From: an uncultured Rickettsiales bacterium
Lineage (GTDB): Bacteria; Myxococcota_A; UBA796; UBA9615; CAYRNR01
Direction of reading: 5' to 3'
Length of the DNA: 64,000 bases
Assembly: GCA_964639985.1 (NCBI GenBank)
Contig: CAZXHG010000008.1
Coordinates: forward strand, 2,116 to 66,115
Part shown: in pieces, positions 44,216 through 50,640 of the stretch
How the letters are laid out: each line of letters starts with the position of its first letter
Numbering within the stretch: position 1 is the first letter of the stretch
Notes under the pieces: generated by a model
The model's database searches: none
The model's input: the letters and a program-made list of their open reading frames with translations, nothing else
Told to the model about the DNA's origin: nothing
Made by a program: the position numbers and the translations under genes

Positions 44216-44878
44216 ATGAGGACGTACACCATGCTGGCCCTGTCCCTGATCACCACCCTGGCCCTGGTCCTGATGGGCTGCCCGCCCGCGGACGAGGGTA
44301 CGGCCACCGAGGAAGTGGCCGCCGACGCCGGCGAGGCTGCCGAGGGTGCCGAGGGTGCCGAGGCCGAGGGCGACTGCCCCCACTCCAAGGCCCACCACGG
44401 CGAGGAGGCCGAGGCGGCCCACCCGTGGTCCATCCTCCACTCCGAGGGTGTCGAGCGCACGGCCGAGAACCTGGACAACGGCGTGAAGATCTCCTTCACC
44501 GCCGGCTGCCCTCACCTGCAGGGCAAGCTCCAGGAAGGCGCTGCCGCCAAGGTCGAGCACATGGCCGGCAAGGAAGAGGGGCACCAGTGCGAGTGCGGCA
44601 TGCACGGCGAGGGCGTGACCGTGGTCGCGGAGAACCTCGACAACGGCGTGGCGCTGGTCGTCACCACCGAGACCGCCGACGACGTGGCCAAGCTGCAGGA
44701 GCACGGCGCCAAGATCGCCGCGGGTGAGGGCGGCTGCGGCGGCTGCAAGGGCCATGGCCACCACGATCACGGTGACCACGCCGAGGCCGCGCCCATCGAC
44801 GCGGGCGGCGCCGAGGCCGGCTGCTGCGAGGAGGGCGCGCCGGAAGAGGACTGTGGCTGCGACGAGGAGAAGAAGTAG
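44216..44878 (+). CDS. His/Cys-rich putative metal-binding lipoprotein with an internal duplication.
   Basis: Lipobox LVLMGC. Internal repeats AENLDNGV...KLQE. Metal-ligand-rich patches CPHSKAHHGEE, HQCECGMHGEG, GGCGGCKGHGHHDHGDH and CCEEGAPEEDCGCDEE. Confidence 0.7.
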   Translation: MRTYTMLALSLITTLALVLMGCPPADEGTATEEVAADAGEAAEGAEGAEAEGDCPHSKAHHGEEAEAAHPWSILHSEGVERTAENLDNGVKISFTAGCPHLQGKLQEGAAAKVEHMAGKEEGHQCECGMHGEGVTVVAENLDNGVALVVTTETADDVAKLQEHGAKIAAGEGGCGGCKGHGHHDHGDHAEAAPIDAGGAEAGCCEEGAPEEDCGCDEEKK

Positions 44879-44884
44879 CCGCAG

Positions 44885-45622
44885 CTACATGCCGACGCCC
44901 TCGGGCACGTCGAGCGAGATGTAGCAGTAGCTGGCGGTGAAGTCGCCGCTGGCGTCCCCCGCTGCCTCCCCCTCCTCGTCCGTCAGCGTCGCGTCGAACT
45001 CGACCGCGATCTTCGTGTCGCCCTTGTGGGTCACCGTGGCGGTCCCCCCGTCGGACACGTACAGGTCCGTGGCGTCGAGCAGCGCACCGTAGGTGTCCCC
45101 GATGCAGATCCCGTCCGTGACCACGAAGTTCTCGGCGATCACGTCGTAGTAGTCGTCGTTGTAGCGCGTCAGGCTGAGGTCGAAGCGGTCCACGGCCTCG
45201 TGGTCGCCCGCGTACTCCCCGTCCGACGGCTCCGTGGCGAACGCCTCGTCGTCGGAGAAGTACAGCGTCATCATGGTGTTGCCGTCGTTGGTGAACTTGC
45301 CCAGGTAGTCCGACAGGGCGGCGTAGGCGCTCTGCCACGCCTCGCACTGGGCGTCGCCGTCCTCGGCATCGGCGAGATCCTGCAGCCGGGCCTCGTACTC
45401 CTCGTAGGCGTTCTCGTAGGCCCGGCACAGCCCGGGCGTGGGGCTGAGCACGAAGGCCTGGTAGTTGAACTCGTACGCGCCGCTGGTCATGTCCTGTTCC
45501 ATCCAGACCGCGCTGCTGACGTTGCCGAACTTCTCCAGGTCGGTGAACGACACCGAACCGGGGCAGCCCATCCACAGGGTGCAGGCGCCCATCAGGGCGA
45601 GGGTGCAGGCAAACCGGGTCAT
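44885..45622 (-). CDS. Hypothetical lipoprotein.
   Basis: ATG at 45622 preceded by GGAGGGAAG. MTRFACTLALMGAC lipobox. 245 aa with balanced composition. The rest of track ORF 44885..47416 is antisense junk of the next gene. Confidence 0.65.
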   Translation of the reverse strand: MTRFACTLALMGACTLWMGCPGSVSFTDLEKFGNVSSAVWMEQDMTSGAYEFNYQAFVLSPTPGLCRAYENAYEEYEARLQDLADAEDGDAQCEAWQSAYAALSDYLGKFTNDGNTMMTLYFSDDEAFATEPSDGEYAGDHEAVDRFDLSLTRYNDDYYDVIAENFVVTDGICIGDTYGALLDATDLYVSDGGTATVTHKGDTKIAVEFDATLTDEEGEAAGDASGDFTASYCYISLDVPEGVGM

Positions 45623-45679
45623 CTTCCCTCCATCGGGCCCGTCCATGTCGGCCCGCCGCCAGTATAATCCAGCACCACC

Positions 45680-47458
45680 ATGGCGAACCTCATCGAAGCA
45701 CGATCCCAGGGGCTGGCCGACGAGGCGCTGGACAACCTCGTCCACCAGTTCGCCCGCCCTCTCGATTTCCTGCGCGAGCTGGTCCAGAACGCCATCGACG
45801 CGGGCACCCCGCGGGTGGAGGTCTGGACCCGCTTCGAATCCCCGCCCCCCGGCGAGTCCCTGGGGGTGCTCGAGATCCACGTCGACGACTTCGGCGAGGG
45901 CATGGACGAGGCGATCATCGACAGCCAGCTGACGCGGCTGTTCTCCTCCACCAAGGAGGACGACCTCACCAAGATCGGCAAGTTCGGCATCGGCTTCACC
46001 TCGATCTTCGCCATCGAGCCGGACGCGATCCTGCTGCGCACCGGTCGCCACGGCGAGGCCTGGGAGCTGCTGTTCCACGCGGACCGCAGCTTCGACAAGG
46101 TGCGCGCGGACGCGGCCCTGGTGGGTACGCAGATCACGCTGTACAAGCGCATGGCGCCCGGGGACCTGGCCGGGTTCGTGCGCGAGGCGCGGTGGGTACT
46201 GTCCTACTGGTGCGAGCACTCGAATACGCCGGTGCTGTTCGGTGACCGTAGCGGCGACGTGGAGCAGACCGTGGCCGACGGAGACGACCCGTTCGCCGCG
46301 TTCGCCGTGGAGCCCGCCGCGGCCGCCAGCGAGCTGAAGCCCGTGACCTCGCCCATGGACATCGACGCGACCCTGGTCGTGCGGCACGAGCGGGACGGCG
46401 TCCGGGTCGTGATCGGTCACGCGGACGAACCCCACTACGGGTTCTACAACGGCGGCCTGACCCTGCTGTCCACGGACAACGCCGATGCGCTCGGTTCGCG
46501 GGCGTCGGCGCTGTCGCACCTCGCCTTCAAGGTGAAGTACGACCGGCTGGAGCACACCCTGACCCGCGACAACGTGCTGCAGGACCGCAACTGGGACAAG
46601 GCGGTGGACGTGCTGTTCGAGGCGGCCGCTCAGCTCCGCGAGCTGCTGATGGTCCGCGCCGTGGACGCGGCCTCCCGGAGGGAGGACATGACCTGCTGGC
46701 ACGGGTGGCTGGCCGACGAGTGCGTCACCTGCTGCCTGCACGAGGGGGAGGAGCTGGACGGGCTGTCGGTCTTCCTCGACCGCCACGGACAGCCGCTGCG
46801 GCTGATCGACATCGAGCGCCAGGAGGATCGCCTGGGTGCGGTCCTGATCGACCCGGGCGAAGGCCCGCTGGCCGACGCGCTGGAGCGGTCGGGTGTTCGC
46901 CTGCTTCCCGAGAACGAGGCCACGTGGCGGTTGCTGTCCGTGAGCGTCAAGCCGCCCCTGCTGTGGTTCATCCAGCGGACCCGGACCGTCGTGCGGGCCG
47001 ACGAGCTGTACCTGCTGCCCGGGGTCGTGGGTGACGACCAGCTGGACGTGCGGGAGCGCCGCCTGCTGGCCTCGACCGAGGAGCTGGTGGGCGAGGCGCT
47101 GGGCCGACGGCACCGGCTGCGCATGGGAGACTTCGGGGGCGTGGACGCCGCGGGCGAGCTGCCCCTGGCCATGGAGAGCCCGGACGGAGGCGAGGTCTGC
47201 CGTCACTCGGATCGTCCGGAGCTGCGCGGACTGCAGGTTCGCCGCCGGACCCTGGTGCTCAACCGGCACCACGCCGCGCTGGCCGGGCACCTGTCGGCGG
47301 CCGAGCACGACCTCGAACTGGCCTCCTTCGGCCTGGCGCAGGCGTTGCTCGTGGTCACCGGCGTGGAGGGCAAGAGGCGCTACCGCAGGTTGCTCGCAGA
47401 AGCGATCGCACGCCACGACGCCGCGGTCGAGCAGGAGTTCGAGGGAGGGCAGCCATGA
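45680..47458 (+). CDS. GHKL-superfamily (Hsp90/MutL/MORC-like) ATPase-domain protein, 592 aa, with an uncharacterised C-terminal region.
   Basis: Bergerat-fold motifs: N box LRELVQNAIDAG, G1 box VDDFGEGM, G2 box GKFGIGFTS (compare Hsp90 GQFGVGFYS). No histidine-kinase dimerisation or H-box, so it is not a sensor kinase. Confidence 0.8.
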   Translation: MANLIEARSQGLADEALDNLVHQFARPLDFLRELVQNAIDAGTPRVEVWTRFESPPPGESLGVLEIHVDDFGEGMDEAIIDSQLTRLFSSTKEDDLTKIGKFGIGFTSIFAIEPDAILLRTGRHGEAWELLFHADRSFDKVRADAALVGTQITLYKRMAPGDLAGFVREARWVLSYWCEHSNTPVLFGDRSGDVEQTVADGDDPFAAFAVEPAAAASELKPVTSPMDIDATLVVRHERDGVRVVIGHADEPHYGFYNGGLTLLSTDNADALGSRASALSHLAFKVKYDRLEHTLTRDNVLQDRNWDKAVDVLFEAAAQLRELLMVRAVDAASRREDMTCWHGWLADECVTCCLHEGEELDGLSVFLDRHGQPLRLIDIERQEDRLGAVLIDPGEGPLADALERSGVRLLPENEATWRLLSVSVKPPLLWFIQRTRTVVRADELYLLPGVVGDDQLDVRERRLLASTEELVGEALGRRHRLRMGDFGGVDAAGELPLAMESPDGGEVCRHSDRPELRGLQVRRRTLVLNRHHAALAGHLSAAEHDLELASFGLAQALLVVTGVEGKRRYRRLLAEAIARHDAAVEQEFEGGQP

Positions 47459-50400
47459 GCCAGCTCGACGACGTGCTCGCCCGCAGCCGTGCTCCCGGGG
47501 CCTTCGTGGAGCGCAAGCGGTTCTCCCTGTCGCGGGACAAGGCGATCGACAAGCTGCGCGAGTTCTCGCTACGCAATCCGCGACAGTACGTGCTCGAGCT
47601 GATCCAGTCGGCCGTGTTCAGCGGGGCCAGCTACATCGCCGTGGACGTGGACCGGGAGCAGTGCACCGTGGCCTGGGTCGGTGGCCAGCCTTTTCATGAA
47701 GGCGACCTGGTCTCGGTCTTCGACAACCTGTTCCGCGACCGCTCCGACCTGGAACACCGGCCGATGATCCAGCTCGCCGTGGCGCTCAACGCCATGCTCC
47801 AGCGCAGGCCCCGCGCCCTGCGGGTGGAGAGCGGCGACGGCTCGGCCGAGGGCACGGTGCGCCTGGACCTCGACCGCAAGGGCAATGGCGTGCTCGGCAT
47901 CCCGGACATGGGCCTGGCCGGGACGTACGTGATGGCGGACTTCGGCAGCGACTGGTTCGGGCGGTTCTCCGGGGACACCTCCACACCCGAGGAGCGGCTG
48001 GTTGAAGAGCGCTGCCGGTTCTCGCCCGTGCCGATCCTGCTCAACGGCCGCGCACCCTTCGGCTACCGGGCCAGCCGCTCGCTGGCCATGCCCGGCTGCC
48101 CCATGTACCTGCCGTTCGACGACGGTGAGCGCTACGGCGTGCTGGCCGCGCCGCCGCGCGTCGGCCGCGTGGAGGGGGTCGCCCTGGTGGTGGGCGGGGT
48201 GCGCGTCACCACGAAGCTGCTGCTCGAGCTGGGCGTGCTGCCCGCGGGGGTGGTGCACCCGGCCGCGACAACGCCCCTGACCGGCGTGATCGCCGACGAC
48301 CGGCTGCGCAAGACCGCGGACCACTCCGACATCGTACGCGAGCGTCGCTTCGCCGAGATGCTGCACGCAGTGCAGCCCCACGCCACCGAGCTGATCCGCC
48401 AGCTGTCCGGCGACCGCTACGAGCCCCCGGCGCTGCCGCGGCTGGTGGGCGGCGCCAAGGTGGTCGAGGACCTGCCCGAGATCGTGCCCCAGATCCCGCC
48501 GCGGCCGGACCTGCCCCGCGACGCCCTCCGGCGGATTCCCGAGGGCGCCCCGGTCTTCAGGGTTCGGCCCACGGACGCCGACGCCCTGGCCGACGCGGTG
48601 CGGCCCGACCGGTTCCCGCACCCGGTGCTGGTCGTGCCCGACACGCAGGTCGCGTACATGGAGGACGTGGCGCCGCACCTGGCCGTGCACTGCCTCAACA
48701 GCGCCGACGAGGTGGCGTTCGTCGACCGCATGCTCGAACGTCGCGTGCGCGAGCGAACGGCCACGGTCCCGTTCCAGGATCCGGTGACCCCCGCCGTGCG
48801 CGGTAGCCTGGAGCTCACCCTGCACCTCGAGGGACCCCGGCCGCTGCTGCACGATCCGGCCGACGGGGACGTGTCCGTGCTCGTGTCCTCGGGTGCGCGC
48901 ATGCTGCGCCACGTGCCCACCCAGCTGGGACTGACCGGTGTCCGCGCTCACCTCGTGCTCGACCCGGGGGCCAACCTGCTGCCCGACGAACCCCTGCACG
49001 GCGTGGACCAGGCGATCCTGGACGGTGCGTGGGCCCTGGTGGGCGAGGAGACCGACGACCTGCTGGTGACCCTGCTCGCGGCGCACATGCAGCCCCACTT
49101 CGTGATCGAGGATGCACGCACCGCCCTGCAGGTGGGGTTCCCCGAGGTCGAGGACGCGGACCTGCACGCCCTGCGGGCCCGGCCCCTGGTGCAGACCGAG
49201 GAGGGGCCGTTGAGCCTGGACGGGCTGGTGGCCCTGATGGGCACGGACCGTGTCCTGCAGGTCGAGCACGACGAGGCGCTGGCGCGGGTGGCGCCGCTGG
49301 AGGAGCGGCTGGGCATGGGCCACCTGGCCAGCCCGTCGGTGGCCCGGACCGCCATCTGCGCGGTGGGTCGCGGCAGCTTCGGCTGGTTCGCGCTCACGCC
49401 GGGGCAGGCCCTGCCCGAGGGGCTGACCCAGATGATGTGGGTCGGCCGCAGCCTGCAGCCGAGGCTCCGACACCCGGACTGGGTGCCCGTGGACACCGAC
49501 CTGCCCGGCGTGGGAGCGGCGCGCCGGCCGGATCACGAGCCCGTGGCCCGGGACTGGGAGCAGGGCACGGCCGAACTGTATCGCACCCTGCGGACGCGAC
49601 TGCGGTTCGACGCCCCGGACGACGGCGTGGACATGAGTGATCCCCGGTCCCGCGGCATGGCCCGCCTGGCCGTGTTGCACCTGGGCCGCAAGCTCGGCCG
49701 GCTGGGCGACGATCCCCTGCTGCAGGCCCTCGGCAGCGCGGGGCCGGTGTCGCTGGACCAAGCCTGCACCGCGCCCGGGTTCGCGGCCTGGCCGCGATTC
49801 GGCCCGGCCGTGCTGGAGGACGGCGTGCTGCAGCTGTCCCTGGACGAGCTGAGCGTGCTGCAGTCCTGCTGCGAGATCCCCGTGCGGTTCGACGACCCGC
49901 CCAGCCTCTGGGACTCGCTCGCGGACCGGGGGGCGAGCGGCTGGCTGGTGCGCACCGAGGTCACCGTGCCGGGCATGCGCGGCTGGCTGGGGCTGCGCAA
50001 CCCCTTCGACGCCACCAGTGGCGTGTTCCTGCAGGCCGATGGGATCCGCGTGGCCGTGCCGGACGTGGACGCCCGCGTGCCCTGTCACGGGTTGCTGCGC
50101 AAGCTGGGCAGCTACTCGGAGGTGAGCAGCAGCCAGATGCAGCTGCTGCGGCTGGCACGCGAGCGGCTGTACCGCGAGGTGGGAGATCTGGCCGACGACC
50201 GCTCGATCGATCCGGCGCTGCGGGAGACAGCCCGGCAGTACCGCACCTGCCACGAGCAGGCCCGCCGGCCCGACGAGGAGGTGGACGAGGGCAAGCCCCG
50301 GGTCGCCAGCCGGGGCTCGAAGGCCCTCGATGAGCTCGCCCGCCGGCTGGCCGAGGCCAGCGGGGGGGTGCTGGACGAGGAGACCCTGTACGTGCGCCCG

Positions 50401-50640
50401 GCCGACGACGGCCCCCGCGATCCGCCCGTGGACCTGATCCAGCGCAAGGCCATGGTCAGCGTGCTGATCAACCGCTCCCACCCCCTGGCCGAGGAGGCGC
50501 TGTCGCGCCCGGGGCGGGCCCGCGAGCTGATCCTGATGGAGGCCCTGCGCCAGGTGGCGTCGTGGGGCGCGATGCACGGACGGGGCTTCGACCTGCTGGA
50601 CGCACAGCAGGTGCTCGTGGCGCAGCGGCTGGGACTGTGA
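47455..50640 (+). CDS. Large (1061 aa) partner protein, translationally coupled to the GHKL ATPase, with a degenerate GHKL-like N-terminus.
   Basis: ATG overlaps the upstream TGA (ATGA). The N-terminus YVLELIQSAVFSGASYIAVDVD parallels the N box but with Asn/Asp replaced, and the G1-equivalent DLVSVFDNLF is degenerate, so the fold is likely ATP-inactive. The remainder has no recognised domains. Confidence 0.75.
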   Translation: MSQLDDVLARSRAPGAFVERKRFSLSRDKAIDKLREFSLRNPRQYVLELIQSAVFSGASYIAVDVDREQCTVAWVGGQPFHEGDLVSVFDNLFRDRSDLEHRPMIQLAVALNAMLQRRPRALRVESGDGSAEGTVRLDLDRKGNGVLGIPDMGLAGTYVMADFGSDWFGRFSGDTSTPEERLVEERCRFSPVPILLNGRAPFGYRASRSLAMPGCPMYLPFDDGERYGVLAAPPRVGRVEGVALVVGGVRVTTKLLLELGVLPAGVVHPAATTPLTGVIADDRLRKTADHSDIVRERRFAEMLHAVQPHATELIRQLSGDRYEPPALPRLVGGAKVVEDLPEIVPQIPPRPDLPRDALRRIPEGAPVFRVRPTDADALADAVRPDRFPHPVLVVPDTQVAYMEDVAPHLAVHCLNSADEVAFVDRMLERRVRERTATVPFQDPVTPAVRGSLELTLHLEGPRPLLHDPADGDVSVLVSSGARMLRHVPTQLGLTGVRAHLVLDPGANLLPDEPLHGVDQAILDGAWALVGEETDDLLVTLLAAHMQPHFVIEDARTALQVGFPEVEDADLHALRARPLVQTEEGPLSLDGLVALMGTDRVLQVEHDEALARVAPLEERLGMGHLASPSVARTAICAVGRGSFGWFALTPGQALPEGLTQMMWVGRSLQPRLRHPDWVPVDTDLPGVGAARRPDHEPVARDWEQGTAELYRTLRTRLRFDAPDDGVDMSDPRSRGMARLAVLHLGRKLGRLGDDPLLQALGSAGPVSLDQACTAPGFAAWPRFGPAVLEDGVLQLSLDELSVLQSCCEIPVRFDDPPSLWDSLADRGASGWLVRTEVTVPGMRGWLGLRNPFDATSGVFLQADGIRVAVPDVDARVPCHGLLRKLGSYSEVSSSQMQLLRLARERLYREVGDLADDRSIDPALRETARQYRTCHEQARRPDEEVDEGKPRVASRGSKALDELARRLAEASGGVLDEETLYVRPADDGPRDPPVDLIQRKAMVSVLINRSHPLAEEALSRPGRARELILMEALRQVASWGAMHGRGFDLLDAQQVLVAQRLGL

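Follow-up and report, generated by a model that had tools for sequence, protein, structure and literature searches.

We aimed to establish what is encoded by a pair of overlapping reading frames in the window, a 64,000-nt stretch of DNA from an uncultured marine myxobacterium. The original prediction had described an ATPase of the GHKL superfamily with a complete Bergerat fold, joined through an ATGA overlap to a larger, degenerate copy of the same fold and set apart from chaperone genes, and had proposed a defence or regulatory role on the model of GHKL/MORC-like conflict modules. Are these real genes that belong together, what is each protein, and what might the two do?

A co-inherited, almost always coupled gene pair

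Both reading frames, here called A and B, were found where they had been placed, and the junction is as described (Table 1). The ATG start of B (47455-47457) overlaps the TGA stop of A (47456-47458), and a Shine-Dalgarno-like GGGAGGG lies ahead of the B start at 47443-47449. Composition was of coding type in both frames, with GC3 values of 0.93 (A) and 0.88 (B) in this 70% GC genome, and the long antisense ORFs at 44885..47416 and 47569..50577 were missing from the GC3/GC2-filtered list. A regulatory scan yielded no relevant match to a sigma-70-type promoter or terminator consensus for A-B, and no Rfam families were found in the window. The sole terminator-like match of the scan lay on the minus strand at 44875-44888. 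As other metagenome contigs carry an identical A protein and each protein has more than 100 homologues, chance is excluded, and A and B are confirmed as real genes.

Table 1. Positions of the A-B gene pair and of its domains and motifs in the window
Feature	Position	Strand	Description and basis
Gene A	45680..47458	+	592 aa; predicted divergent full-length Hsp90-like ATPase with sacsin-type N-domain signature; ORF, families, AF2 model
Gene B	47455..50640	+	1061 aa; predicted pseudo-Hsp90; ORF, AF2 model
A-B coupling junction	47443..47458	+	GGGAGGG, then ATGA
A N-terminal Bergerat ATP-binding domain	45752..46249	+	~aa 25-190, limits approximate; conserved motifs
A middle-domain loop LEHTLTRDNVLQD	46547..46585	+	Carries invariant R296
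A C-terminal domain	47042..47455	+	~aa 455-592; helix, three strands, three helices; motif LVLNRHHAAL
B N-terminal extension	47455..47574	+	aa 1-40; helix, strand, helix (model)
B Hsp90-like N domain, predicted catalytically dead, and first middle-domain lobe	47575..48444	+	~aa 41-330, limits approximate
B middle region	48445..50304	+	aa 331-950 (~620 aa); further Hsp90 M-like parts with alpha/beta and beta modules
B C-terminal domain	50305..50637	+	~aa 951-1061; motif VLINRSHPLAEE

The expectation that the pair would recur across genomes was borne out. Gene A precedes B at every one of the ~55 species-level loci with upstream DNA, and the 4-nt overlap (ATGA or GTGA) is present in 50 of 55 homologous loci, the remaining five having gaps of 0-24 nt. 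Distance matrices for the two proteins were also correlated (r = 0.89, Mantel p = 0.001). Collectively, these data show strict co-inheritance of A and B, with translational coupling in almost every case; two proteins that simply act in one pathway would also be expected to lie side by side and diverge together. With a threshold of E ≤ 1e-3, a profile of B recovered 1549 representatives of clusters at 50% identity (806 at E ≤ 1e-10), A-type matches numbered more than 1300, and all named members of the pair families are Myxococcota. One apparent fusion of A and B (P0120, 1668 aa) was rejected as evidence of interaction, because its locus (L004/L053), which splits the A and B profile matches over three reading frames, is frameshifted or mis-assembled, not fused.

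Two further genes, d2 (~350 aa, helix-rich and apparently coiled-coil) and d1 (~320 aa), adjoin the pair in 27 of 46 loci. They form tight d2-d1-A-B operons at L071, L076, and L079, and in the window's own genome they lie ~20 kb downstream of the pair. Neither gave anything significant in Pfam, NCBIfam, PHROGs, PDB profiles, or hhalign against A and B, and they are likely to be accessory factors or dedicated clients. The sole match for either protein linked d2 with MCE/MlaD and fell below threshold. The remaining neighbours across loci, among them transporters, a helicase, cyclases, a sigma-54 activator, gyrB, CsrA, S30AE, and ABC-F, make up a setting of housekeeping and signalling genes, and, as originally noted, there are no chaperone or co-chaperone genes nearby. 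Because Hsp90 has kinase clients, we also considered whether the pair is tied to Ser/Thr kinases, and rejected this, kinase-like ORFs being found in 9 of 65 loci at variable distances and without enrichment. At L073 and L079, a kinase gene abuts the pair.

Domain organization and ATP sites of the two proteins

The Bergerat motifs that had been read in A are all present (ELVQNAIDAG, DDFGEG, and GKFGIGFTS), and GHKL motifs I (ExxxNxxD), II (DxGxG), III (GxxGxG), and IV (GT) follow in order, making A a member of this superfamily. Residues E33, N37, D40, D70, G72, G74, G100, G103, G105, and T150 are each invariant in 119 of 119 family members, as is motif IV, G149/T150. Pfam matches to HATPase_c_3 (39.4 bits, cutoff 25; 7e-10) and HATPase_c (26.6 bits, cutoff 26.4) were accompanied by narrow passes of the cutoffs for sacsin-type ATP-binding domains, namely PF25794 (SACS; 33.5 bits versus 32.8) and NCBIfam NF047352 (P_loop_sacsin; 51.6 bits versus 50). 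Profile matches in the PDB for the A N-domain were to the HtpG N-domain, sacsin SR1, and MutL. Sequence models of Hsp90 itself scored far below their thresholds, with 25.2 bits against a cutoff of 371 for NF003555 (HtpG) and 35 bits against 455 for NF010683 ("HSP90 family protein"); both matches were limited to the N domain, and Pfam HSP90 was not among the A matches at E ≤ 1.

The AF2 model of A (pLDDT 89, pTM 0.84) extends this likeness beyond the N domain. The top 50 Foldseek hits in the PDB were all full-length Hsp90, TRAP1, HtpG, or GRP94 structures (best E = 4e-20, over ~650 columns), aligned over 640-700 columns with TM values of 0.40-0.48, which are modest because domain orientation limits TM. 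By this comparison, A has the three-domain architecture of Hsp90, comprising N ATPase, middle, and C-terminal dimerisation domains. Low pLDDT between the Gly boxes (<50 at aa 96-100) is as expected for a mobile ATP lid. The loop LEHTLTRDNVLQD falls within the modelled region matched to Hsp90 middle domains and is under strict conservation (T293, T295, R296, D297, N298, and D302 invariant in 119/119); we infer that the R296 loop is the equivalent of the Hsp90 catalytic Arg loop (yeast Hsp90 R380). In the C-terminal domain, N528 is kept in 112 and H531 in 118 of the 119 sequences. Conservation and the predicted structure together show A as a divergent yet complete Hsp90-like protein, with N ATPase, middle, and C-terminal domains and conserved catalytic residues. 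The original statement that A lacks a canonical HtpG context thus holds for its sequence scores and understates the complete N-M-C architecture seen in the model.

Profile searches, which had been suggested as a way to classify both proteins, were informative for A, through HATPase_c_3 and the sacsin-type domains, with the HtpG cutoff failed and B left without a family. For B, sequence-only proof of an N-terminal GHKL domain was sought and abandoned, as Pfam, NCBIfam, PADLOC, and PHROGs gave no family and PDB sequence profiles no match; hhalign aligned B with A in collinear fashion yet only weakly (P = 0.09 for 32 sequences and 0.0048 for deeper sub-alignments). The assignment of the B N-terminus to the GHKL fold rests on structure prediction. 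In the AF2 model (pLDDT 92.1, pTM 0.74), for which the top 50 Foldseek hits were again all Hsp90, a Bergerat-fold N domain is followed by an Hsp90-type middle domain. The alpha/beta and beta modules within aa 331-950 had no strong structural match. The modelled C-terminal domain repeats the order of elements predicted for A, and a C-terminal motif common to the two proteins falls at the same place in that order. The B C-terminal domain is probably Hsp90-like; sequence proof of an Hsp90 C domain was sought and abandoned, a profile of the B C-terminus finding nothing in the PDB.

The ATP site of B is rebuilt. With positional equivalence to the A motifs taken from hhalign, the N-box Asn was found in 0 of 114 B sequences (Ala in 79, Ser in 21, Gly in 13, and Cys in 1), Asp at either position likewise in 0/114, and the catalytic Arg position holds Gln (67), His (36), or Met (11). 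The G2 box reads H-L-V-Q-L-A-V-G, and the segment quoted in the original prediction, ELIQSAVFSGAS, is present as given. B accordingly lacks the residues of an active GHKL ATPase, and the view that it opens with the same fold and has its ATP-site residues substituted, so that ATP binding is predicted to be lost, was upheld by the Hsp90 structure matches and by losses in 114/114 sequences. The word "degenerate" is misleading, as the dead module is the most conserved region of B. The replacement residues are themselves strongly conserved, with F55 in 105, W74 in 101, Q106 in 113, and N112 and A113 in all 114 sequences, and K286-T287-A288-D289 in 111-114; the equivalent of the catalytic Glu, E48, is kept in 114/114. 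Conservation is highest over the first 300 aa of the protein, and mean pairwise identity in the profile is 0.70 over columns 1-50 versus 0.17-0.44 in the C-terminal two thirds. Most conserved of all is the extension of aa 1-40, where R10, P14, F23, L25, A30, K33, R35, and L39 are invariant and which may act like a strap. These data show B to be an enlarged Hsp90-like protein in which different residues, strongly conserved in their turn, stand in place of those of the nucleotide pocket and of the catalytic Arg.

A wider B-like family (1200-1350 aa, Bradymonadia included) has the same pairing of active and dead proteins. The same ATP-site losses occur in 55/55 of its members and all motifs are kept in 5/5 of the A-like partners, the two genes lying 10-58 nt apart with no overlap.

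Possible functions of the pair

The explanation that we favour, with some reserve, is that the two proteins, as subunits, make up a Myxococcota-specific molecular clamp of the Hsp90 type that has one active site, most plausibly an obligate asymmetric heterodimer. A and B would be produced at equal levels, and the 4-nt overlap seen in 50/55 loci is consistent with subunits present at an equimolar ratio in one complex. They would join through their similar C-terminal domains, as in Hsp90 homodimers. ATP binding and hydrolysis by A alone would then drive transient closure of the A N domain against the nucleotide-blind N domain of B and its conserved N-terminal extension, with the extra region of ~620 residues in B providing a platform that holds a substrate or partner, and with d2 and d1 as likely accessory factors or dedicated clients of the A:B machine. 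Its function would most likely be the remodelling of proteins or complexes in normal cell physiology, not phage defence. We put forward only tentatively the fuller picture of a multi-component machine of Myxococcota, a fixed asymmetric Hsp90 dimer in which A drives nucleotide-free B, the ~620-residue insert is the working surface, and d2 and d1 are obligate cofactors or clients.

An unlikely alternative is that no heterodimer forms, A being a conventional homodimeric Hsp90-like ATPase and B a separate protein that is only co-expressed with it, whether as a scaffold (homodimeric or monomeric), a regulator resembling a co-chaperone, or a dedicated client. All characterised Hsp90s are homodimeric, A alone has the complete N-M-C architecture, and the spacing of the genes in the wider family means that coupling is not universal. 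In a client or scaffold, however, one would not expect an entire Hsp90-like N-M module to persist and to be the stretch under strongest purifying selection, nor a C-terminal domain that resembles the putative dimerisation domain of A and shares a motif with it, and the prevalent overlap of the genes likewise favours subunits of one complex.

Patchy spread is typical of defence genes, and we regard it as quite unlikely that the pair is a GHKL-type anti-phage or conflict system (Tiamat-like or MORC/paraMORC-like) in which A is an ATP-driven switch and B a sensor or effector. A defence role had originally been judged plausible, and a check for a location in defence islands suggested; we found support for neither. 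No integrases, restriction-modification, toxin, or other defence genes, and no mobile genes, were seen among the neighbours at the loci examined, and no relatives of the pair were found in 2.9 million viral contigs. PADLOC recognized only a TmtA-like head in A, its matches covering shared GHKL motifs, and gave no match for B; no nuclease, protease (no conserved HExxH), or other effector domain was detected in either protein. The d2-d1 local synteny is kept over deep divergence, and the restriction of named members to Myxococcota fits vertical inheritance better than patchy spread.

It is highly unlikely that the pair works as a GHKL clamp on DNA or chromatin in the manner of MutL, MORC, SMCHD1, or Topo VI-B, and not as a protein chaperone. 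Two methods placed Hsp90-family structures first for both proteins, and for A the match spanned all three domains; Pfam and NCBIfam detected no MutL C-terminal endonuclease, Toprim, CW, hinge, or DNA-binding domain, and the neighbourhood has no conserved partner gene of the repair or topoisomerase kind. Least probable of all is a reading in which the B pocket takes up some other ligand, be it a second messenger, a peptide, or another nucleotide, and makes B a sensor subunit gating A, for which the near-invariance of the B replacement residues and E48 and the c-di-GMP and cyclic-nucleotide genes near the pair in the window (an HD_5/HD-domain protein, a CHASE2 cyclase, and a GGDEF protein) could be invoked, but a protein-protein interface with A explains the conservation equally well and these signalling neighbours are not conserved at other loci.

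Significance and comparison with known systems

Myxococcota have complex lifestyles, and lineage-specific protein-remodelling systems are poorly known there. The families described here, with at least 1549 B-type representatives and more than 1300 A-type matches, are labelled "hypothetical protein" or "ATP-binding protein"; they now gain a predicted structural identity, and d2-d1-A-B becomes a candidate four-gene module of the phylum, Bradymonadia included. If the single-active-site heterodimer is correct, it would be the first of the Hsp90 type in nature to contain a pseudo-ATPase subunit, one ATP site and a protomer unable to bind ATP would be enough for an Hsp90-like cycle, and pseudoenzyme biology would gain a clear case of a dead copy retained as the partner of a live one. 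Asymmetric use of the two Hsp90 ATP sites is a long-standing question, studied via engineered heterodimers and TRAP1 (PMC5018835, PMC5550277), and a natural pair with one dead, nucleotide-blind protomer would be an asymmetric system at hand for structural and kinetic studies. Should the heterodimer not be confirmed, the finding would reduce to a new and divergent subfamily of Hsp90-like proteins whose conserved neighbour is unusual, a useful but modest result.

Among known systems, the pair most resembles the Hsp90 family (HtpG, TRAP1, Hsp90/Hsc82, and GRP94). A shares its predicted N-M-C architecture, Bergerat motifs, and C-terminal helix/sheet/helix domain, and a conserved Arg in the A middle domain probably marks the counterpart of the Hsp90 Arg loop; the B N-M module, and probably the B C domain, are modelled with the same folds. 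The differences are that the sequence similarity of A is confined to the ATP-binding motifs and that active A is always encoded with a dead, paralogue-like partner of 1061 aa with ~620 extra residues. To our knowledge, known Hsp90s are homodimers of identical active protomers, and the literature searched yielded no natural Hsp90 with a pseudo-ATPase partner. The closest parallel is with engineered yeast Hsp82, where a competent protomer is likewise paired with an incompetent one. In the account given in PMC5018835, which cites Mishra & Bolon 2014, heterodimers with one hydrolysis-dead protomer (E33A) sustained the viability of yeast, and viability was not supported with a protomer unable to bind ATP (D79N). 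Those are laboratory constructs with protomers of equal length, whereas the asymmetry of A and B would be genetically fixed, and the analogy is imperfect because B is predicted to lack ATP binding and not hydrolysis only, like D79N. TRAP1 works via an asymmetric closed state (PMC5550277).

Sacsin, whose SRR models (PF25794, NF047352) A matches, is a eukaryotic protein of 4579 aa, built of three tandem repeats together with UBL, DnaJ, and HEPN domains (PMC3629688, PMC3710099); the A/B pair has none of these, and the full-length fold predicted for A is closer to Hsp90 proper. Tiamat TmtA is likewise a long protein that starts with a sacsin/Hsp90-like GHKL head, and A matched five of six PADLOC TmtA models (E = 4e-9 to 3e-3). 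These matches, however, span only ~100 N-terminal residues of models of 1300-1650 aa, and Tiamat is described as consisting of a single gene and is reported to carry a PD-(D/E)XK nuclease (bioRxiv 10.1101/2024.10.26.620412), whereas no nuclease was detected in A or B by Pfam or NCBIfam and the context is not that of a defence island, so the pair falls outside this system. It also falls outside MutL and MORC, which scored below Hsp90 with both methods and which differ from the pair in the MutL C-terminal endonuclease/dimerisation domain, the MORC CW/coiled-coil, and a DNA-repair context. On the predicted structures, Hsp90 is the closest fold for both proteins, ahead of MutL and MORC.

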